A stretch of DNA of 64,000 nt from Candidatus Bathyarchaeota archaeon (GTDB lineage: Archaea; Thermoproteota; Bathyarchaeia; Bathyarchaeales; Bathycorpusculaceae): positions 1 through 64,000 of the forward strand of contig CAWGZR010000011.1 in the NCBI GenBank assembly GCA_963827165.1. The letters run 5' to 3'. The position numbers and the translations under genes are program-made. Below are positions 22,547 through 43,954 of the stretch, piece after piece; the stretch's first letter is position 1; each line of letters opens with the position of its first letter. The notes beneath the pieces are model-generated. The model was not told the DNA's origin, searched no databases, and saw only the letters and a list, made by a program, of their open reading frames with translations.

Positions 22547-22622
22547 GCCAGGGTAGCCGAAGGGTTCAGGCGGCAGCCTGCAGAGCTGCTTTATGTGGGT
22601 TCAACTCCCATCCCTGGCTCCA
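22547..22622 (+). tRNA. tRNA-Cys(GCA), copy 1
   Basis: acceptor GCCAGGG/CCCTGGC, anticodon loop CT-GCA-GA (G37), T73, CCA. Confidence 0.93.
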
Positions 22623-34045: not shown

Positions 34046-35474
34046 TCACCTGCTGAGAAGATAGTTTATGACGTCTATTGTGGTTATTATGTCGATAATT
34101 TTATTGTCTTCCAAGACGGCTAACGCATTCTGATTCTTCAATAGGTTAAGAGGCGCAACTATTCTTTCCTCAATATTAACGGCGGGAAGTGGCGGTTCAA
34201 GAAAATCCTTTACTGTTTGTTTGCTTGATGAAGCCCTATCGGACAGCTTTTTCATAACGGTAATTTCTCTTATGCTGCCCACTTGAACGTCGTCTTTGAT
34301 TACCGGCAGTTGCGAGACGCCGTGCACTTTCATTAAATCTATTGCCTTGCTGATACCGTTTTCTGGATCAACATAGAGTAAACCCAACTTGTTTGATTTC
34401 GTCCTCAAAATATCCCTAATTGCTATTTTTTCCTCGCCGCCCGACAGGAAACCGTTCTCAATCATCCCAGTCATCGGAGTAAAACTTGTTAAGATAATTT
34501 CTTCCAGTGTCTGGTAAAATAACCACCATAGTCTTGCCTTCTCCCATCTTCTTTGCCACTTGTAACGCTGCGAACACGGCGGCACCTGCCGAGCCACCAG
34601 TAAACAACCCTTCTTTTTGAGCTAGTTCTCTTGCGGTTAGGAAAGAGTTTTTGTCGTTTACGGTTATGATTTCGTCAACTATCTTTAAGTTTAGTGTTGA
34701 CGGAAGGAAGTCTTCGCCGATGCCTTCCACTTTGTAGGAGTGTACGTCTGCCTTGTCTTTTGTTCCATAGAATTCATGGTGATATAGTGATCCTTCAGGA
34801 TCAACGCCGACAATGCGGATGTTTGGGTTTTTTTCTTTGAGGTATTTGGCGATACCGCTGATTGTTCCGCCTGTTCCCATTGTGGCAACTAAAACGTCAA
34901 TCTTGCCTTTGGTTTGTTTCCAGATTTCTGGACCCGTTGTTTTGTAGTGTGTTTCTGGGTTTGCTTTGTTGAAGTATTGGTTTGGCATGAAGGAGTTGGG
35001 TGTTTCTTTGGCTATTCTCTCAGCAACTTTGACGTAGTTTGCTGGATGGTCCGGGGCTACATTTGTCGGGGTGATGATGACTTTTGCGCCAAACGCTCGT
35101 AGAAGGTCGATTTTTTCTCTGCTCATTTTATCCGGCAAAGTGAATATCATTTTGTAGCCTTTAGCGATGGCGGCTATTGCCAATCCAAGACCTGTGTTGC
35201 CTGAGGTTGGCTCAACGATGGTGTATCCCGGTTGTATGATTCCTTGTGCTTCTGCGGCTTCAATCATGGAGATGCCTATGCGGTCTTTTATGCTGCCGCC
35301 TATGTTGAGAAACTCGAGTTTTGCAAGAACATCACATTCTACGCCTTGTGTGAGTTTGGTTAATTTTAACATTGGTGTATTACCTATTAATTGAAGGATG
35401 TTTTCTGAGATTCCGTCCCTTGTAGGGATAGATTTCTTGAGTTTTGTGGTTTGTCTGGTTTTTTCGGTTATCAA
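34046..35474 (-). CDS. cbs: cystathionine beta-synthase with C-terminal CBS domains (one +1 frameshift)
   Basis: [20 protein letters not shown] and VEGIG motifs; extra G at ~34467 splits FYSDDW/MIENGF; CBS pair follows. Confidence 0.85.
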
Positions 35475-35490
35475 TTTTGACCCTCTGTTG

Positions 35491-35532
35491 TATAACAATG
35501 TTATAAACAACCATTTCTATAACGGCGTTATA
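35491..35532. promoter_or_regulatory. tandem operators TATAAC-AAT-GTTATA (35491-35505) and TATAAC-GGC-GTTATA (35518-35532)
   Basis: two perfect copies in the cbs promoter. Confidence 0.85.
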
Positions 35533-35615
35533 TTTAAAACTGCTTCAACAGTAAAAAAACCGAAACGAAGAATGACTGTCGAATCGAAAAAATGGGTGGT
35601 TTATTCCAAAAAGAA

Positions 35616-35630
35616 TATAACATCGTTATA
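35616..35630. promoter_or_regulatory. operator TATAAC-ATC-GTTATA
   Basis: perfect copy 18 bp upstream of the HTH-CBS ATG. Confidence 0.85.
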
Positions 35631-35648
35631 ACTCAATTATTGAATAAC

Positions 35649-36203
35649 ATGGTTCCTAAATTAGACGAAATTGCCAAACGCCGCAGACAACTTGGTCTTA
35701 AACAATCAGAGCTGGCAAAGGCAGCAGGCGTAAGCCAATCACTAATTGCCAAACTGGAGGCAGGAACGATAGACTCGTCCTACACCAAAGTGAAAACAAT
35801 CTTCGATGTCCTCGAACGCTTAGAATTCAAAACCAAAGTCCAAGCAGAAAAAATCATCCAATCCGAAGTTGTCAGCATCCAAAAAAACGAACCAGTTTCT
35901 GAAGTTGTAACGATCATGAAGGAGCACGGTTACTCGCAGATACCTGTGTTTGATGGGAAACAATCTGTGGGAAGTATTTCGGAAAAGGCGATTCTTAGGC
36001 AGATTTTGGCTGGAAAAGATTTGGAGGACATATCTAAGCTGCCGACTGAGAAAATTATGGAGGAAGCTTTCCCCCAGATAAGCGAGGATGCCCCGTTGTC
36101 ATTGATTACAAGTCTCTTGCAGACCTACTCAGCGGTTTTAGTATCGAAAAAAGGCGTGGTGGTGGGCATTATTACGAAGGCGGATTTGCTGCGGATGCTT
36201 TAA
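35649..36203 (+). CDS. XRE-HTH + CBS-pair transcriptional regulator (COG3620-like)
   Basis: RRRQLGLKQSELAKAAGVSQSLIAKLEAG; CBS motifs YSQIPV and GIITKADLL. Confidence 0.9.
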   Translation: MVPKLDEIAKRRRQLGLKQSELAKAAGVSQSLIAKLEAGTIDSSYTKVKTIFDVLERLEFKTKVQAEKIIQSEVVSIQKNEPVSEVVTIMKEHGYSQIPVFDGKQSVGSISEKAILRQILAGKDLEDISKLPTEKIMEEAFPQISEDAPLSLITSLLQTYSAVLVSKKGVVVGIITKADLLRML

Positions 36204-36385
36204 GGTGGGGATTATTTTTTTAAGTATGGGGATTCTTTTAATTGGTTAGAAAAAATTGTTTTTATATGGTGGTGAGGGGTGCCGGATACTGTTAAGTTAA
36301 GTTACCCATGAATTTTTTGGTACTGAAACTAAATGTTTTATATTCTCAAAACTTAAATATCAATAACAACGTAAAACAAAGCTAA

Positions 36386-37372
36386 GTGGTAAATATGTCA
36401 AAAGCCAATTTGCTTTCTCTTGAACAAATTATCGATGTTTCTGAAGAAAATAATTCCCAGATGAAAGAAAGCTTAGAAAAAATTTCTCAAAAAGAAAAAG
36501 CAGTAGTTTTAGCATTTATTGCGCCCTATATAGGAAGACAAATTTCGCCCACAAAAGTAATTAGTGCTGAACTTGGAATTTCAGAAGAGTTTGCAATTGA
36601 AACTGCCATTGAAAAGATTAAGGAACAAACTCAATGCGAAAAACTTATTTTACTTATAAATAGTCCAGGCGGGTTTGTTAGTTCATCATACAAAGTAGCA
36701 AAAGCTTTGAGATGTAACTATAAGGAAATCAAAGTTTTTGTTCCTCACATTGCTGCTAGTGGAGGTACTTTGATTGCCTTAACTGGGAATCAAATAGTTA
36801 TGGGGATGATGAGTCAACTAAGTCCAATAGACCCTCAAGGAATGAGTTCTGGACACAGTATAGCGGCAAAAAGTGTTGTAGATGGATTTGAAACTATAAC
36901 TGAGTTTTTCAAAAATACATCTGAAGAAGATGCTCCATATACTTACAAAGTACTTGCCGAAAAATATACTGCTGAGAAAATAGATGAAGCAATTGCGTCA
37001 ATTACATTAATGCAAGATTATGCGAACGAAATCTTACTTGCAAGTGGTTATGCGCATGAAGATGCGACAGCAATAGCTGGAAGATTAACTTTAGGTTTTA
37101 GGAATCATGGCGAAGTCATTAATTATGATAAAGCTAAGTTGGCAGGTTTGAATGTGATTTCAAATAGTTGTTGCGCCGAAGATTGGAGAACTATGCGCAA
37201 ATGGTTAGGTGAGTATTTGCTTCAAAGCGCTGATAAGCACATTATTAGGTTCGTAATATCAAAGGACATTATTGACTCAAAACAGGAAACCAATGTTGAA
37301 AGCCATGAATTAGAGACAAAAGAGTTAAAGGTAGCAAATGAGGAAACAAATAAAAAACCGATAGAAAACTAA
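36386..37372 (+). CDS. ClpP-class (SDH-type) serine protease
   Basis: LLINSPGG, AASGGTLIAL, LSPIDPQ and RNHGEVI motifs. Confidence 0.85.
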   Translation: MVNMSKANLLSLEQIIDVSEENNSQMKESLEKISQKEKAVVLAFIAPYIGRQISPTKVISAELGISEEFAIETAIEKIKEQTQCEKLILLINSPGGFVSSSYKVAKALRCNYKEIKVFVPHIAASGGTLIALTGNQIVMGMMSQLSPIDPQGMSSGHSIAAKSVVDGFETITEFFKNTSEEDAPYTYKVLAEKYTAEKIDEAIASITLMQDYANEILLASGYAHEDATAIAGRLTLGFRNHGEVINYDKAKLAGLNVISNSCCAEDWRTMRKWLGEYLLQSADKHIIRFVISKDIIDSKQETNVESHELETKELKVANEETNKKPIEN

Positions 37373-37383
37373 AAAACTATAAA

Positions 37384-37584
37384 TTGAATAAAGATAACAT
37401 ATATGGTAGGGTTTTTGCTATGGAAACTGAACAAGTCAAGAAAAACACTCAACTACTGATTGACCAATTTTCTAAACAAAAGGCTGAAGACCCATTGGTA
37501 AAGTATTGGATAGAACGAAAACGAGGAATCGTAACTTCACTTACTCCCAAAAAAACAGCGAAACATACAAAAAAATCCGCGTAG
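37384..37584 (+). CDS. small hypothetical protein
   Basis: directly downstream of the protease gene; likely ATG at 37420. Confidence 0.4.
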   Translation: MNKDNIYGRVFAMETEQVKKNTQLLIDQFSKQKAEDPLVKYWIERKRGIVTSLTPKKTAKHTKKSA

Positions 37585-37585
37585 T

Positions 37586-37738
37586 TTAGCTTATCTTCAC
37601 TTTCTGTTTTAATCGTTTCTCGTATTCTTCTTCTGTTATCATGCCTTTTTCGATAAGTAAGTCAACTAGGGCTGAGTGCATACTGTCTAAGAGGTCTATT
37701 TCTTCAAGCGGATTTCTTTCAACTTTTGCTTTCTTCAT
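37586..37738 (-). CDS. 50-aa helical protein (not in the ORF track)
   Basis: MKKAKVERNPLEEIDLLDSMHSALVDLLIEKGMITEEEYEKRLKQKVKIS; overlaps the RHH gene. Confidence 0.6.
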   Translation of the reverse strand: MKKAKVERNPLEEIDLLDSMHSALVDLLIEKGMITEEEYEKRLKQKVKIS

Positions 37739-37892
37739 GTTTTCCACCTTTAGCTAAGTATCCTTGTTCGCTTAACCAATTCATAATGATTTGCCTTAGA
37801 GTATCGCTATATCCTTCGCCTAACTTACCGACTACCTCTTTGTCTAAGATTTCAACGACTCCATTGGGTAAAGATACTAAGATTTTCTTCAT
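37719..37892 (-). CDS. 57-aa CopG-like RHH protein (not in the ORF track)
   Basis: MKKILVSLPNGVVEILDKEVVGKLGEGYSDTLRQIIMNWLSEQGY; ATGA-coupled to the transposase stop. Confidence 0.7.
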   Translation of the reverse strand: MKKILVSLPNGVVEILDKEVVGKLGEGYSDTLRQIIMNWLSEQGYLAKGGKHEESKS

Positions 37893-38797
37893 TTACTTAT
37901 CACCTTTAATTCCTCTTTTTCTTCTTTTGAGTTACTGAGAGCATGAACTAAAGTTGCCGCTTCGCGTTTTGTGGCTTGGTCTATCAAGCCTTTCCAATTG
38001 TTAGGAACGTTCATCCGTGCCGCTTGAGCTGGTGTTTTGCCGCCGAGACTTTGATGGGGGCGAACACAGTTATAGTGAACTGACCATCCTTCGAGCAACA
38101 GTTTTGTTGATTCATAGCTGTGTAGTCCTCTCATGCAACGAGTTCTGTCCTTTAGGGTGCAATGGAGTCTTTCAACGATGTTGTTTGTTTCTCTTGCCTT
38201 TATGCCAACGCGCTGTACTAATTCAACTCTTGTGTCCTTTCGCATGGTATAGAAAACTTTGTTGAAAGCACTCTTATAAACGTGGCTACCGTCAACAAAA
38301 ACTGCTCGTGGTCTAACCTTGCTTTGGTCAACACCCTTTTTGAAAATACTTACAGTATCCTCAAAGGTTCTTGTATTTGAAAGGTGAGAAGCAACCATAA
38401 ACCGTGTGTCTTCATCTATCATTTCCCAGAACCAAATACTCCGACCCTCACAACTCAGCATAGTTTCGTCCTCATGCCATAAACCTGAAAGTTGTGGAAC
38501 TTCTGAAATCATATATTCCTTGACTAGTTGCGAGTATTTCTTTATCCAGTTGAGGATTGTAACCTGAGAAATCTTTTCTCCAAAAACTTGCTCCAAGTTT
38601 CTTTGAGTTTTTCTTAGAGACAGCCCGTCATAGTAGAAGTTTAGGGCTGCAACAACTATGTTTTTCTCGTTTCTCATTCTTGAGAACTTGCCGTTAGGTA
38701 CGAAAATATGACCGCAATCTTTACACTTGTAAGTTTGCTTGTTGTGGCGTATCCCTTTTTTTGTAATGTTTTCGCCGTTGCAATATTTGCAGTTCAT
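37889..38797 (-). CDS. IS6-like DDE transposase with N-terminal zinc ribbon
   Basis: CKYC..CKDC, WHEDET, VFVDG, NNIVERLH and RPHQSL motifs. Confidence 0.9.
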   Translation of the reverse strand: MNCKYCNGENITKKGIRHNKQTYKCKDCGHIFVPNGKFSRMRNEKNIVVAALNFYYDGLSLRKTQRNLEQVFGEKISQVTILNWIKKYSQLVKEYMISEVPQLSGLWHEDETMLSCEGRSIWFWEMIDEDTRFMVASHLSNTRTFEDTVSIFKKGVDQSKVRPRAVFVDGSHVYKSAFNKVFYTMRKDTRVELVQRVGIKARETNNIVERLHCTLKDRTRCMRGLHSYESTKLLLEGWSVHYNCVRPHQSLGGKTPAQAARMNVPNNWKGLIDQATKREAATLVHALSNSKEEKEELKVISK

Positions 38798-38814
38798 TTA
38801 TGTCACGCTCTTGC

Positions 38815-38834
38815 AGGTATCTTATAAGATACCT
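38815..38834. promoter_or_regulatory. perfect 20-bp palindrome AGGTATCTTATAAGATACCT
   Basis: located 17 bp upstream of the transposase start. Confidence 0.65.
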
Positions 38835-38907
38835 TACTATTTATGGCTTGTGGTATGCCTGTGGGATACCCAAGACATAAATAGCGCTTAAGTATTAAAT
38901 AGAACCC

Positions 38908-39483
38908 ATGAAGATGTTATACATGTATGTTATACATACATGTTGGGCATCTCCAAGGAGTCGCAGTATCCTGACTAAAATAAACGTACCAACAACAATA
39001 CTATCGAGTGAAGAAGTACAAGCACTCAAGCCTAACGAGCGAGAAGGCTATGTGAGAAATCTGATTAAAAGTATACTACGATTAAACGAAAACGGCATTA
39101 TGGTTTCAGAAATAGTAGAAGCAACGGCTCTTAACAGAATAACCGTAACCAAACACTTAGAGCATTTGGTGGCTATAAGAGAATCTTACAAAAAGGACAG
39201 GGGAATTGGCGCTGTTTATTATCTGAATGGCAAAATGGTTCATCCTACAGACCGCGCAAGCATAAACTTGGGAAATAAGATATATGAATTTGTTAAGCTC
39301 GAAAATCCGGACGGAGAATATATCTTCGTTCAAGAAAAAGAACAGGACAACCTAAAAGTTACCACTGTAAGAGGTGGAATTATGCTTCGTTCTTGTGATT
39401 TACCCCTATTCATAGAAGGGTTAAACAAATTCATGGTTATTGCAGAACTAAACAAAGGAGACGAAAATAGACATGAGCACTAG
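38908..39483 (+). CDS. winged-helix protein with a small C-terminal domain
   Basis: GIMVSEIVEATALNRITVTKHLEHL HTH; overlaps the next gene; start uncertain. Confidence 0.7.
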   Translation: MKMLYMYVIHTCWASPRSRSILTKINVPTTILSSEEVQALKPNEREGYVRNLIKSILRLNENGIMVSEIVEATALNRITVTKHLEHLVAIRESYKKDRGIGAVYYLNGKMVHPTDRASINLGNKIYEFVKLENPDGEYIFVQEKEQDNLKVTTVRGGIMLRSCDLPLFIEGLNKFMVIAELNKGDENRHEH

Positions 39484-40825
39484 ATTACATGTAAAACATT
39501 ATTCAAATAGACGATGTCGTTTTTCAGAATCAGTTGATTTCCAAGTAAATGGTAAATCCATTCCAACACCAACATTTGCGCCGAGACTGAAAAATGATAA
39601 TGAACTAAATGTTTACCTAGACATGAAATCTAACAATGACACTAAACAGCTTTCCGCATTCATCATAAGATTAATTGATGTAAAAAGGACAATACAGTAC
39701 CGATTGAAAAAAACAGAACAAACAAATCTCTTTGGTCAACCACTGGATGTCCCTTTTGCAGATAGCCTAAAACGAGATATTATTCTAATCGACCCCGCAT
39801 TAGAATATCTTTATTATCACACAATGCTTGACCGATTAAAAACATCTCCCAACATGCCAAGTCTCGTTTGTAAACACGCAGCAAAAATTGCTGAAGGCAT
39901 TGACGAGATTCGAAAGGAGAGAGAAAGGCTAAAGGGTACTTCCGAAAAGCCAGCGCAAACTATAGAAGAATACAGAGATAGTCAACATACTAACTTCTGG
40001 ACTTGCATTTACAAGGATGCAAACAAACGCATCAAATTGATTAGGGATACATATACGGCAGAAATGATGTGTAGAGCAGACATCCTTATTCCGCCAGTTC
40101 CCCTTATTACTTGCCCAAATTTGTTGACCGTTGCAATTGATATGAACGAAAAGTTTAGAGCACTTGTTGGTGATAAAGGAGAATGCGCTGATTACTTTGT
40201 TCTAAAGCGACAGATGTTAAAGAACGAAAGTGTTATGGATAAAATTAAAAACTATGTTTCAAATAGCGAGAGTCACCTCACCATCTTTAAGATAAAGGAT
40301 TCTGATTTAACGAACGCTGATTATGCCTTAGAGCGGAGTTCTTTTGGAAAACTACTAGAGGAACTATTCCTTGTCTCCCAACACATCGAAAACAAATCTT
40401 TTGCATTGTTTGAAGCGGGGTATCAAGCATTTCCAGCAGCTCTATGTTCGTTTGCAATAGTATCGACCGCATTTAACTTAGACAGGGATGACTGGCGTGC
40501 AGTTAAAGGGCAAACAATTAGCGAATATGCTAATTGGTATGACCCAAGCTCGATGACTATGCGCAATAGAGATGTACTAATTACTGAGACAGAAAATAAT
40601 AGCGGTATAGTACCTTGTTATTGTCCTGAGTGCACCTCTGGAAAATCACTAGTAAAAGAGAACCCGATAGAATACAATAGACGAGTAAAGAAACACTTCT
40701 TGTTTACAAGGGAAAATGAGATGCATGAAATAGTCGATGCAATCAGTAGACAAAACGTTTCGATGGCTTTTGAAAAACTTGAAAGGTCAGACCTGCGAAT
40801 ACTTTCTAAATTAGTGCCGAGATAG
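39473..40825 (+). CDS. putative TGT-like TIM-barrel protein with a CxCxxC..H zinc site
   Basis: N-terminal IPTPTFAP (cf. TGT TPxFMP); C-terminal PCYCPEC...KKHF; no DSGG motif. Confidence 0.55.
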   Translation: MSTRLHVKHYSNRRCRFSESVDFQVNGKSIPTPTFAPRLKNDNELNVYLDMKSNNDTKQLSAFIIRLIDVKRTIQYRLKKTEQTNLFGQPLDVPFADSLKRDIILIDPALEYLYYHTMLDRLKTSPNMPSLVCKHAAKIAEGIDEIRKERERLKGTSEKPAQTIEEYRDSQHTNFWTCIYKDANKRIKLIRDTYTAEMMCRADILIPPVPLITCPNLLTVAIDMNEKFRALVGDKGECADYFVLKRQMLKNESVMDKIKNYVSNSESHLTIFKIKDSDLTNADYALERSSFGKLLEELFLVSQHIENKSFALFEAGYQAFPAALCSFAIVSTAFNLDRDDWRAVKGQTISEYANWYDPSSMTMRNRDVLITETENNSGIVPCYCPECTSGKSLVKENPIEYNRRVKKHFLFTRENEMHEIVDAISRQNVSMAFEKLERSDLRILSKLVPR

Positions 40826-40843
40826 TCAGACATCAAAAGATGT

Positions 40844-40922
40844 GCATGGATAGCTTAGTTCGGACAGTAGCACCCGCCCACTAAGCGGACAGTCGTGGGT
40901 TCAAATCCCACCCCATGCACCA
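40844..40922 (+). ncRNA. tRNA-like RNA (Arg-type body, loop CC-ACT-AA)
   Basis: acceptor GCATGGA/CCCATGC, A73 and CCA, D loop GGA, T arm GTGGG-TTCAAAT-CCCAC, short variable loop. Confidence 0.75.
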
Positions 40923-40969
40923 CCCTATCTCTAATAGGGTCATTTCTCTTAAAAGGTTTGTGAAGCAAC

Positions 40970-41089
40970 TTAAGGTAGCTTGCCTAAAATCCTGTCGAGC
41001 TTCTCATCCATCTCTCTTAGTTTTCGCTCCATTTTGGTTATTTTACTTTCTATATCCTTTACTTTGTTTAAAGTAGCATATTCAGTCAT
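40970..41089 (-). CDS. 39-aa coiled-coil peptide
   Basis: MTEYATLNKVKDIESKITKMERKLREMDEKLDRILGKLP; inside the transposon. Confidence 0.4.
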   Translation of the reverse strand: MTEYATLNKVKDIESKITKMERKLREMDEKLDRILGKLP

Positions 41090-41209
41090 TTTTCTTCCCA
41101 AGCGTTAGTTTATCTGAAAAAATAACAAAAGGTTTGCGGAAGAATTAGTTGGGTAACTTAACTTAACAGTATCGGGGTGCCGTAAAGGCTTTAAGCAACC
41201 TCTTAAACT

Positions 41210-41224
41210 TATAACAGTGTTATA
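41210..41224. promoter_or_regulatory. operator TATAAC-AGT-GTTATA
   Basis: perfect copy between a TATA-like CTTTAAG and the cysK ATG. Confidence 0.85.
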
Positions 41225-41238
41225 AGGCAGTGTGTGAC

Positions 41239-42190
41239 ATGAAGATAAACAATAACGTTTTAGAAACGATAGGAAAAACACCACTCGTACGCCTAAATCG
41301 AATGGCCGAAGGCATAGATGCAACCGTCGTCGGCAAACTCGAATCAAGAAACCCGGGCGGAAGCGTTAAAGACCGCATATGCCAAAGCATGATTGCCGAA
41401 GCAGAAAAACAAAGTTTAATCAAACCAGGTACAACAATCGTTGAGCCAACCTCAGGTAACACAGGCATCGGCTTAGCGATGGTCGCAGCCGTAAAAGGCT
41501 ACAAACTAATACTCACTATGCCAGAGACCATGAGCACAGAGCGACGCAACCTGCTCAAAGCATATGGTGCACAGCTTGTTCTCACGCCAGGGCCCGAAGG
41601 TATGGGTGGAGCAATTAAGAAAGCCGATGAAATAGCTGCATTAACACCTAACAGTTTTGTTCCGCAGCAATTCAAAAATTTAGCTAACCCAAAAATTCAC
41701 CGTGAAACTACAGGCCCAGAAATCTGGGAAGATACTGATGGAAAAGTGGACATTCTTAGTGTCGGGTGTTGGCACCGGTGGAACAATAACGGGCGTGGCG
41801 CAGTACATTAAGCCCCTAAAACCAGCCTTCAAAGCCGTGGCTGTCGAACCAGCCGCTTCGCCAGTGCTGAGCGGAGGACAGAAAGGACCGCACAAAATTC
41901 AGGGGATAGGCGCCGGCTTTAAACCCGACGTGTTAAAACTCGATCTGGTGGACGAAATATTCAAAGTAACGGATGACGAGGCTATCAAGACGGCGAGGCA
42001 ACTGGCGCAAAAAGAAGGCTTACTTGTAGGCATATCTTCGGGTGCAGCAGCGTATGCCGCGCTTGAAATCGCGAAGCGACCAGAAAACAAGGGCAAACTC
42101 ATCGTTGCCATTTTGCCAGACACAGGCGAACGCTACCTTAGCACTGTATTGTTCCAAGAGCCAGCAACAAGCGCAACCCCAAACATTTAG
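41239..42190 (+). CDS. cysK: cysteine synthase A (one +1 frameshift)
   Basis: [31 protein letters not shown] and DTGERYLST motifs; frame break at ~41757. Confidence 0.88.
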
Positions 42191-42249
42191 TTCCCATAGC
42201 AAGTTTTTTTTATATCGCCCTTTTTTAATTATGCAAGTTGGAAAGAAAT

Positions 42250-43308
42250 ATGGCGGCAAAAACTGAAAAATCCCTCCTTAAAAGAACCAGCAAAGCAGAT
42301 CAAAACGCAGAAGCTGATTCGTGGACTCCTGAGCGAATGCTTGATGCACTCATGAGCAAGCAAGCTGAAGTTGAGCAGGATTGGGTGGAGAGGGGGTTGC
42401 CGAAACTTGTGGATGAAATGGTGGTTAACTACGAAAAGTTCGGCGGTATGGACCACCTCACTGGGCGAGATCTTCCTTCTAAAGAAGTGGTTGTCGAAGT
42501 GCTTGAAGATCTGTTCACGATCCTTTTCCCCGGCTATTTGGGCAAAGAAGAAATCACCAAAGCCAACATACGCTACTATCTTGGCACCAAGCTAAACTCG
42601 GTTTATGGCAAACTCACAGGTGAAGTTGAGAAAAGCCTGAAATATATTTGCCGAAAAGCCGGGACGTGCCCTCAGGACGTTTGCCAATCTCGCGCTCACG
42701 TTGTCGTTAAAGAGCTTCTTGAGCAACTTCCTGAAATAAGGTCCATGCTTAGCGGTGATATTCAAGCGGCTTATGCAGGTGACCCAGCGGCTGTGAGTAC
42801 CGATGAAGTTATCTTGAGCTACCCGTGTGTGCTTGCCATTACAACTTATCGCATAGCGCATGTGCTCTACCTTGACGGAGTGCCTTTGATTCCACGAATA
42901 ATGAGCGAGCACATTCACTCATTGACGGGCATCGACATTCATCCAGGTGCAACGATCGGCGAAAACTTCTTCATCGATCATGGCACAGGCGTCGTCATCG
43001 GCGAAACTACCGAAATAGGTGACAACGTAAAACTTTACCAAGGTATAACGTTGGGTGCTCTAAGTTTTCCGAAAGATGAGAAAGGCAACATCATAAAGGG
43101 CAGAAAAAGGCATCCAACGATTGGAAACAACGTCGTCATCTATTCAGGAGCGACAATTCTTGGACCCAACGCCGTAATCGGCAATGACGTAGTGATCGGC
43201 GGCAACGTTTGGATAACGTCGCCCGTTGCTTCAGGAACAACCATAACTATCACAGCTCCAGAACAGAATTACAAAAAAGAAAATCACGACAAAAACACTA
43301 AGACTTGA
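42250..43308 (+). CDS. cysE: serine O-acetyltransferase
   Basis: [26 protein letters not shown] and RHPT motifs. Confidence 0.92.
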
Positions 43309-43878: not shown

Positions 43879-43954
43879 GCCTAGGTGGCCGAGTCGCATA
43901 AGCAATCGCCTGCAGAGCGATTTTACAAGGGTTCAATTCCCTTCCTAGGCTCCA
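43879..43954 (+). tRNA. tRNA-Cys(GCA), copy 2, with atypical D arm
   Basis: acceptor GCCTAGG/CCTAGGC, ATCGC-CT-GCA-GA-GCGAT, T73, CCA; D loop lacks GG. Confidence 0.85.

Follow-up and report, generated by a model that had tools for sequence, protein, structure and literature searches.

The closest described relatives of the element reported here, a 4.9-kb transposon within a 64,000-nucleotide stretch of archaeal DNA, are the insertion sequences (IS) of the IS6 family. This stretch, which we refer to as the window, comes from Candidatus Bathyarchaeota archaeon (GTDB lineage Archaea; Thermoproteota; Bathyarchaeia; Bathyarchaeales; Bathycorpusculaceae) and comprises positions 1 to 64,000 of contig CAWGZR010000011.1 in assembly GCA_963827165.1. 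As described in a review of the family (PMC7986276), IS6 members are 700-890 bp long with one open reading frame (ORF), are flanked by 8-bp direct repeats, and possess GG tips with a cTGTt word. The review names just one passenger-carrying member of the family and places zinc-finger transposases in Clostridial clades only (clade h). An earlier note, made from the letters of the window, had given a typical size of ~0.8-0.9 kb, no passengers and 8-bp duplications, in agreement with the review. Transposons with passenger genes were stated to be undetected in archaea by Krupovic et al. 2019 (PMC6563490). The words 'Bathyarchae', 'passenger' and 'tRNA' gave no match in a term search of a 2026 survey of archaeal IS, in which most of the 25 word-start matches to 'IS6' that are shown refer to IS630 or IS607 (PMC13343696).

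The element described here has one transposase and its passengers within a single pair of inverted repeats and moves as a unit, an arrangement that recalls transporter IS (tIS) and unit transposons. Tn3 and Tn7-like transposons likewise combine a single transposase with passengers in one inverted-repeat pair and carry restriction-modification, toxin-antitoxin and other defence cargo, and the small genes beside the transposase gene recall the toxin-antitoxin pairs reported in Tn3-family transposition modules (PMC7157771). The element differs from these transposons in its archaeal host, its IS6-related transposase, and its content, which includes no resolvase or targeting proteins. Here, we present evidence that positions 36285-41173 of the window are very probably an intact, single-copy, autonomous DNA transposon, recently inserted, that belongs to an archaeal lineage of IS6-related elements with zinc-ribbon transposases.

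Ends, target duplication and empty allele

The limits of the element are set by two inverted repeats and the duplicated target that flanks them:

36276-36284, left copy of the 9-bp target-site duplication, GGGGTGCCG, read from the sequence and present once in the empty-site contig
36285-36308, + strand, left terminal inverted repeat of 24 bp, GATACTGTTAAGTTAAGTTACCCA, at the end distal to the transposase start
41150-41173, - strand, right terminal inverted repeat, the exact reverse complement of 36285-36308, at the end proximal to the accessory module
41174-41182, right copy of the 9-bp target-site duplication, GGGGTGCCG, read from the sequence and the empty-site contig

Counted between its ends, the element is 4889 bp long. 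When the 24-mer was sought with up to 3 mismatches throughout the 3.13-Mb genome (14 contigs), it matched only at 36285-36308 and 41150-41173, and the reversed 24-mer, used as a control, gave 0 matches. The whole 4.9 kb and the transposase are both single-copy in this genome. The perfect repeats and duplication that the earlier note had seen are thus borne out as ends that are unique genome-wide, as is its remark that the DNA is AT-richer, since G+C is 37.2% inside the element and 44.5% in the genome.

An allele lacking the element was recovered from public data. Public sequencing runs were searched with the left flank only, and contigs from four runs (X1 to X4) were then compared with positions 34500-43000. 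Run X2, a peat metagenome, contains a 389-nt contig (record 14, depth 3.9) that consists of 36099-36275 (177 nt, 0 differences) followed by 41174-41385 (212 nt, 8 differences). It joins 36275 to 41174 and skips 4898 bases; nine letters fit both sides, and GGGGTGCCG occurs once. The reconstitution of the target, which the earlier note had proposed as a check, is therefore exact. Pieces of the element interior are present at full identity in contigs of runs X1 and X4. Contigs of runs X3 and X2 leave most of the interior uncovered, which, in contig data, is not evidence of absence. The perfect ends, the perfect duplication and the co-existing empty allele together indicate a recent insertion, as had been proposed.

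The insertion lies in the host spacer between the gene for a CBS-domain regulator (CBS-domain/helix-turn-helix) and cysK, and no gene is broken by it. In four genomes of the same genus (G005, G014, G015 and G007) these two genes adjoin each other without the element, and the distance between them ranges from tens of bases to about 110 bp; the empty sites of these related species are 70-80% identical to the window and too diverged to show the 9-mer itself. The insertion point touches the 5' edge of a block (41183-41225) that is conserved in G005, G014 and G015 (L038-L040). It has a purine-rich word and TTTAAG-type box and then, ahead of the cysK start, the palindrome ATAACA(C/G)TGTTAT. From its sequence the block is probably the cysK promoter, with the palindrome as an operator. 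The earlier placement of the element just upstream of the cysK promoter agrees with the conserved block and with the empty-site contig. We also observed that cysK (41230-42190) is split into overlapping ORFs, 41230-41811 and 41702-42190, by an extra A at 41758. The contig from run X3 does not have this A, which may reflect a real strain frameshift or an assembly error.

Gene content and relatives

Between the ends, the supported content of the element is at least six protein genes and one RNA gene. One of the proteins, F9, has the fold of tRNA-guanine transglycosylase (TGT). The internal features are:

36386-37372, + strand, cargo gene for an SDH-type ClpP-fold serine protease of 328 aa (PF01972, 1.2e-18)
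37384-37584, + strand, 66-aa ORF, unsupported as a gene, with no family match
37586-37747, - strand, core ORF F3, 53 aa, helical, overlapping F2, with a weak SHOCT-like match
37719-37892, - strand, core ORF F2, 57 aa, whose ATG overlaps the transposase stop codon (ATGA)
37889-38797, - strand, DDE transposase of 302 aa with an N-terminal CxxC...CxxC zinc ribbon (Pfam DDE_Tnp_IS240, NCBIfam transpos_IS6)
38798-38907, divergent intergenic spacer of 110 bp between the transposase gene and the accessory module, read from the sequence
38908-39483, + strand, F11, a putative winged-helix DNA-binding protein of 191 aa, 5' of the TGT-like gene F9
39473-40825, + strand, F9, a TGT-fold protein of 450 aa with a CxCxxC...H zinc site, identified by fold and zinc motif
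40844-40922, + strand, tRNA-like gene with anticodon loop CCACUAA (ACU), a short variable arm and an encoded CCA (ARAGORN, Rfam)
40970-41101, - strand, 43-aa 'coiled-coil' ORF, unsupported, with sub-threshold Pfam matches only

The genomes of the host family were scanned with the end sequence, in which one letter was degenerate and at most 2 mismatches were allowed. Of 332 genomes, 63 contain the ends, and these represent 18 of 70 genera; the reversed end gave 0 matches in all 332. Every facing pair of ends on one contig was collected as a first set, which comprises 17 pairs including the window copy. Perfect 9-bp direct repeats flank 16 of these pairs, and each repeat is different. A transposase is encoded by nine (eight intact, at 82-93% identity, and one, L045, frameshifted), and these nine span 3.6-8.0 kb with no minimal IS among them. 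The remaining eight are 0.65-2.2 kb long and contain other ORFs, and such transposase-less cassettes, having the family ends, may be mobilised in trans. Thus the search for copies with different cargo that the earlier note had called for was successful. Movement as a unit is evident in the absence of the whole 4.9 kb from the empty allele and in relatives with the same ends, different contents and their own 9-bp duplications. In another genome (L055, G088:C63:2437-5304) two family ends face outward, 2.8 kb apart, and may belong to neighbouring elements or to a rearrangement.

A second search, in which species-representative genomes were scanned with the transposase alignment, yielded 50 public loci, six of which were already in the first set. 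A locus was taken as bounded when an 8- or 9-bp direct repeat surrounded a 16-nt inverted repeat (up to 3 mismatches) flanking the transposase gene. By this rule 35 of the 50 are bounded, at 2.2-8.1 kb, two low-complexity false pairs (the first pair of L094, and L107) having been left out of the count. They fall into the following groups:

Close clade: transposase identity at least 69%, 9-bp duplication in 19 of 19, 3.4-8.0 kb, ends of the GATACTGTT... type
L084: transposase identity 59%, 8-bp duplication, 3.1 kb, GATGCTGTT... ends
Distant clade: transposase identity 31-37%, 8-bp duplication in 14 of 14, 2.2-8.1 kb, ends of the GGTTCTGTGAAGTC... type
L104 (Micrarchaeota): identity 40%, 9-bp duplication (a weak case), 3.0 kb, 2 mismatches in 16

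The shortest transposase-bearing copy among the bounded close relatives measures 3.4 kb. The distant clade (L087-L106), on metagenome-assembled genome (MAG) contigs of Bathyarchaeia and Methanomethylicia, has transposase ORFs of about 370-400 aa and many extra genes. Kilobases of extra genes are therefore the rule in both clades, and the length of the duplication separates them.

In the window copy, the gene at the end distal to the transposase start appears to be the exchangeable cargo. Its product, recognised earlier as a ClpP-class protease, also matches phrog_11747 (9.5e-33) and, under the cut-off of that model, NCBIfam Clp_like_SDH (2.6e-23); a search of the 35 bounded elements recovered it nowhere else. 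The neighbouring 66-aa ORF had no tblastn match at E<=1 in any fetched locus. The coiled-coil peptide of the earlier note did not hold up, having no homologue in any fetched locus. Of the interpretation that this is an archaeal transporter-IS lineage with cargo on both sides of the transposase, the first part is upheld by the varied bounded relatives; the second needs refinement, as only the protease side looks interchangeable.

The cargo of relatives is of a different kind. The first set yielded 30 cargo ORFs, in which type II and IIG restriction-modification genes are both present. Among these ORFs are two fusions of a DNA methylase to an Mrr nuclease, a D12 methylase accompanied by a SacI-type endonuclease and a 901-aa N6_Mtase/Eco57I-type enzyme, as well as HicA/HicB, two NYN proteins, a ParA-type ATPase and ShosTA. 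Among the transposase-less cassettes, one contains an NYN/OST-HTH protein and one a ShosT/DprA-like pair. This last is a 1.5-kb cassette (L052:1001-2531, G242:C185) with family ends, a 9-bp duplication and a ShosTA-type defence pair (PADLOC ShosT 4.5e-23; Pfam DNA_processg_A 2e-50). A census of 104 ORFs of at least 90 aa from 30 further elements, with transposase genes excluded and matches taken at E<=1e-5, gave as the commonest families N6_Mtase (6), Eco57I (6), N6_N4_Mtase (5) and Methylase_S (4), followed by HSDR_N_2 (3), GmrSD_N (2), GmrSD_C (2) and Mrr_cat (2); most of the 104 have no family match. By these matches the exchangeable cargo of the lineage consists mainly of restriction-modification, toxin-antitoxin and other defence genes. 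PADLOC found nothing for the window proteins save a chance-level match to F9. The cargo of one census element includes the gene for a TATA-binding protein (PF00352, 1.3e-29), and that of another includes a ParB_N protein.

Core operon, accessory module and tRNA-like gene

The transposase gene, F2 and F3 form a constant core operon and are not free cargo. Both small ORFs are present in all nine transposase-bearing copies of the first set; among the 20 bounded elements of the close group, counting L084, F2 is present in 20 and F3 in 17. Neither was found in the bounded elements of the distant clade. The two small coupled ORFs of the earlier note are thus confirmed and conserved in relatives. The F2 alignment has 24 invariant columns, and its strand-helix-helix pattern suggests a ribbon-helix-helix fold, with no significant Pfam or PDB match; F3 matches Pfam SHOCT at 0.0025, under its cut-off, and the profiles of F2 and F3 retrieved nothing below E 0.29 from the PDB. 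From their conservation, F2 and F3 are probably regulators of transposition. In the spacer between the transposase gene and F11, a putative bidirectional promoter (38798-38907), a 14-nt inverted repeat (38837-38850 and 38871-38884) lies over TATA-like words and is likely to be a shared operator.

Part of what had been taken for cargo, the block formed by the genes for the winged helix-turn-helix (wHTH) protein, the TGT-like protein and the tRNA-like RNA, recurs upstream of the transposase gene as an accessory module. In the window copy and in L048 and L053 it consists of F11, F9 and then the tRNA-like gene, on the strand opposite to the transposase. Five first-set copies have a protein of 169-244 aa (F7 in four of them), then the tRNA-like gene, on the transposase strand and just upstream, and in L080 the block of F11, F9 and tRNA-like gene is on the transposase strand. 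The wHTH protein named in the earlier note is no more than plausible: F11 has no family match, and its model is poor (pLDDT 61), with three helices at residues 42-87.

The fold and the zinc motif of F9 support its earlier identification as TGT-like. Its 72 relatives are unnamed without exception, and none has a Pfam domain. In 33 F9 sequences C382, C384, C387 and H408 are invariant, as are D69 and D107. The AF2 model (pLDDT 91) has structural matches to TGT only, with Foldseek giving E 8.2e-8 for the archaeosine TGT 1iq8 and a superposition on chain residues 6-352 giving VIA Z 27.4, a root-mean-square deviation of 3.2 and 14% identity over 326 residues. The F9 profile also matches 1iq8 (E 5.6e-4) over a region that covers the zinc motif. 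F9 therefore shares the catalytic fold and the CxCxxC...H zinc site with the archaeosine, bacterial and eukaryotic TGTs and with DpdA. It differs from them in its identity of 10-15%, in having no Pfam TGT match at E<=0.1, in being without the C-terminal domains of archaeosine TGT, and in being paired with a small DNA-binding protein, often with a tRNA-like gene next to it. The host genome has its own TGT of 541 aa, with which hhalign aligned the F9 profile in the zinc region only (probability 71%), so that D69 and D107 are not mappable to the catalytic aspartates. In the ESM Atlas, F9 and F7 fall in unnamed clusters whose nearest named entries, TGT (0.75) and DUF5343 (0.88), are leads only.

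When metagenomes were scanned with the F9 alignment, 32 loci were recovered. F11 lies upstream of F9 in 25 of these, and six of the other seven have no upstream room. A tRNA-like gene begins 8-24 nt past F9, on the same strand, in 15 of the 27 loci where the sequence continues for 110 nt or more downstream; the other 12 belong mostly to the more distant F9 relatives, which are also without a nearby transposase. In 12 of the 32 loci the transposase gene is beside F11. Pairs of F11 and TGT-like genes without a nearby transposase or tRNA-like gene (L116-L119, L123, L130, L132 and L139) indicate that the pair also lives outside the transposon family.

Such free-standing pairs, which make up 12 of the 27 loci with downstream room, raise an alternative that is unlikely but must be taken seriously, namely that the wHTH, TGT-like and tRNA-like genes are a mere passenger cassette, for example one for DpdA-like DNA 7-deazaguanine modification, with no role for the element. 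The presence of F9 in just three of the eight intact first-set copies and the dominance of DNA-modification and restriction genes in the cargo of the lineage would fit this view, and TGT-fold DNA transglycosylases of phages are known (PMC6884629). Against it, the module has a fixed place immediately before the transposase gene, whichever way it is oriented; copies that lack F9 bear another DNA-binding protein and then the same tRNA-like gene in the same place, the tRNA-like gene is present in all eight intact copies of the subfamily, and no PADLOC DpdA model matches F9 at E<=0.01. We retain the reading of the block as an accessory module of the element.

The RNA gene of the module starts 18 nt past the F9 stop codon. 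It scores 45.8 bits against the Rfam tRNA model (gathering threshold 29), and ARAGORN calls it 'Ser ACT'. Within the first set it occurs in 8 of 8 intact autonomous copies and in 0 of the 9 others. When the eight copies are folded as a cloverleaf, 92.9% of cells are paired, compared with 75.5 +/- 1.8% in shuffles; 12 of 21 pairs have changed on both sides, and none of 500 shuffles reaches any of the measures. The Rfam score and this covariation substantiate the tRNA-like gene of the earlier note. The loop C-Y-A-C-U-A-A is invariant in the eight copies, the acceptor stems are almost wholly different, and the discriminator base is not conserved. Position 33 is C in five of the eight, including the window copy, and U in three. 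The 15 F9-linked metagenome copies have ACU (12), GCU (1) or a 9-nt loop (2), with U33 in 11, and diverged copies have GCU anticodons or 8-9-nt loops.

No ACU anticodon is present among the 41 host tRNAs found by ARAGORN. The pattern of anticodon loop and T arm has exact matches inside elements only and, with one mismatch, finds the host tRNA-Arg genes UCU and CCU; the RNA is therefore a derivative of tRNA-Arg in which position 34 has become A. By global identity there is no clear parent among host tRNAs (at most 72%), and the variable arm is short, unlike that of host tRNA-Ser genes. Since tRNA-Arg identity is determined by C35, U36 and A20, the body of the RNA looks likely to be an arginine acceptor. 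Recoding of AGY to Arg by the element tRNA was considered and rejected, because in codon alignments AGY alternates with TCN between copies at conserved positions of the transposase and F2; this alternation indicates that AGY is read as Ser. An AGU reader with an Arg-like body would thus be harmful to the element's own proteins.

It remains rather improbable, in our judgement, that the gene encodes a working decoder that reads AGU through an unmodified A34 and offsets AT-rich codon usage, like the tRNAs of phages. The selected loop and the frequency of AGU in the element favour decoding: the Rfam score exceeds the gathering threshold, the RNA has a 7-nt loop, A37 and an encoded CCA, U33 is found in the 3 element copies and 11 F9-linked copies counted above, the ACU anticodon is kept while stems covary, and AGT accounts for 29.7% of the Ser codons of six element genes compared with 11.1% in 960 host ORFs. 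AT bias alone lifts the AGT share, however, and the short variable arm and tRNA-Arg-like body make charging with Ser unlikely and with Arg likely, so that the damage to element proteins noted above would follow. C33 in most element copies, the variable discriminator base and acceptor stem, and the GCU anticodons of diverged relatives also speak against a decoder, and the non-canonical loops of some relatives favour a non-decoding role. Tentatively, and with a little less than even confidence, we suggest that the tRNA-like RNA may be non-decoding and act in processing or regulation or as a substrate of the element's proteins.

As in phages and other mobile elements that carry tRNAs, the gene encodes a cloverleaf RNA akin to a host tRNA. 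It differs from these in that its carrier is a DDE transposon of 4-5 kb, in that its anticodon is not among the host tRNAs found, and in the combination of a tRNA-Arg-like body with an anticodon for a Ser codon. To our knowledge, no insertion sequence has been reported to carry a tRNA gene, and a literature search on tRNA-like genes in IS gave no such title among the matches listed. Three further observations were made. After the tRNA-like gene, a 21-nt stretch (40944-40964) recurs without change in L114 and at 95% identity in L112, and the remaining tail to the end repeat is unconserved. The window contains two tRNA-Cys(GCA) genes (22547-22622 and 43879-43954). Elsewhere in the genome, a second tRNA-Arg(UCU)-like T arm, with no ARAGORN tRNA call, is located at C10:96013.

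Probable affiliation with IS6 and significance

The earlier description of a centrally placed, IS6-like transposase agrees with the curated models. The best Pfam match is DDE_Tnp_IS240 (1.4e-19, 71 bits against a cut-off of 27), and NCBIfam NF033587 transpos_IS6 scores 132 bits against a cut-off of 125. D110, D169, E209 and K216 are invariant in the alignment, with K seven residues past E. At E<=0.001 there are 687 homologous proteins; those with names are 'IS6 family' or 'IS1/IS6 family transposase' of Candidatus Bathyarchaeota/Bathyarchaeia, and the host group agrees with the named MAG records. The repeats contain a CTGTT word at positions 5-9 of the 24 bp and a tip that reads GA in most copies, this one included; GG tips are found in several other genera and in the distant clade. 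The transposase match, the DDE motif with K at +7, the short inverted repeats with the cTGTt word and the N-terminal zinc finger, which is found in some IS6 clades (clade h, Clostridia), are likenesses to IS6 as it is outlined in PMC7986276. Measured against the same outline, the element differs in its size of 4.9 kb, with several protein genes and an RNA gene, from members of 700-890 bp with one ORF; in its 9-bp repeats and GA tip from 8-bp repeats and GG; and in a lineage in which cargo is the rule from a family with one passenger member (PMC7986276). A further difference lies in the two small ORFs, conserved and coupled to the gene for the transposase. We therefore class the elements as a new subgroup of unit transposons that is related to IS6 but separate from its typical members, a filing that is based on the shared transposase type and internal end word and not on the 8-bp duplication or the size, in which the elements depart from the family.

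IS1 elements make 8-9-bp repeats and have a long archaeal subgroup, and if the element were a member of that subgroup, with a single-ORF zinc-finger transposase, its 9-bp duplication and length would be ordinary. We give this assignment little probability. The NCBIfam N-terminal zinc domain of IS1/IS1595 does match (33.2 bits against a cut-off of 28), the IS1 equivalog has an E-value of 2.9e-16, and one homologue is named 'IS1/IS6 family transposase'. The IS1 equivalog reaches only 60 bits against its cut-off of 100, whereas the IS6 model exceeds its own, and the best Pfam match is the IS6-type DDE domain. In addition, the ends bear the word given for IS6 ends in PMC7986276, and the distant sister clade has IS6-like GG tips and 8-bp duplications. 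A literature search for ISMhu11, a name tied to the long archaeal subgroup of IS1, gave no match.

That the locus is not a transposon, being a chance inverted repeat round a small IS, an assembly artefact, or a plasmid or virus integrated at a tRNA attachment site, has virtually no likelihood and was rejected: a tRNA-like gene does lie near one end, as at many integrase-made junctions, but it is internal, 227 bp from that end, a Pfam scan found no integrase in the element, no transposase relative was found in viral contigs, and the unique inverted-repeat ends with their 9-bp duplication, the empty-site contig in which excision there restores the target exactly, and the 16 further independent copies with different 9-bp duplications are those of a transposon.

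A number of observations weigh against our assignment of the element as a recently inserted, autonomous, IS6-related transposon. The empty-site contig is short (389 nt at depth 3.9) and derives from a related strain rather than the same one, and with a single copy in the genome the activity of the element here is witnessed solely by this allele. One of the 17 first-set pairs, L054 (648 bp), has no duplication, and for 15 of the 50 public loci no bounds could be set. Zinc models of IS1/IS1595 and IS256 also fit the N-terminal ribbon of the transposase, one homologue carries the name 'IS1/IS6', and the tip of this copy is GA instead of GG; the 9-bp duplication, the length and the several genes misfit the IS6 definition in PMC7986276. 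In diverged copies (transposase at or below about 81% identity) the tRNA-like gene is mostly undetected. Finally, the roles proposed for F2, F3, F11, F9 and the tRNA-like gene are drawn from conservation alone.

The conserved D-D-E-K residues, the IS6-type internal end word, the 9-bp target duplication and the empty allele form the basis of a proposed mechanism. The transposase would bind the 24-bp ends and link the 3'-OH groups of both to phosphates that lie 9 bp from each other in the target, and repair of these staggered joins would yield the target duplication. The route may pass through a replicative cointegrate, as in IS6; no cointegrate-like arrangement was seen in this genome, where the element is single-copy. 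The content of the element has three layers. The first is a constant operon that encodes the transposase together with two small proteins whose translation is coupled. The second is the accessory module upstream of the transposase gene, comprising a DNA-binding protein, a tRNA-like gene and, in this copy, a TGT-fold protein. The third is exchangeable cargo at the other end, which is represented by defence genes in relatives and by an SDH/ClpP-type protease here.

A literature search for IS6 transposases of Bathyarchaeia returned nothing, and one for transporter or tRNA-like IS showed no such element among the titles listed, supplements aside. The status of the elements as undescribed is thus founded on literature searches and not on comparison with ISfinder or TnCentral. 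Beyond what the earlier note had claimed, the analysis adds a widespread archaeal lineage, a 9-bp duplication that is a clade character, a conserved accessory module and defence cargo.

These elements bear on how genes move among archaea. Dozens of bounded 2-8-kb elements from Bathyarchaeia of soil, peat and sediment, each with one IS6-related transposase, appear to move defence genes, and the same ends may also mobilise transposase-less cassettes, one of which carries ShosTA. The sister clades with 8-bp and 9-bp duplications offer a natural pair in which to ask what sets the spacing of the target cuts. We found no precedent among insertion sequences for either the tRNA-like gene with its non-host anticodon or the unannotated TGT-fold family. 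A doubtful but far-reaching proposition is that, in Bathyarchaeia and neighbouring archaea, defence genes travel to a major extent on cargo-bearing IS6-related transposons that are so far undescribed and that, in one branch, an RNA-enzyme module serves the life cycle of the element. If this were true, the module would comprise an ACU RNA derived from tRNA-Arg, a divergent TGT-fold enzyme and a DNA-binding partner, and, for example, a base-exchanged or processed RNA would gate transposase expression or mark the element. It would then be the first tRNA-like RNA encoded by an insertion sequence together with its cognate modifying enzyme.

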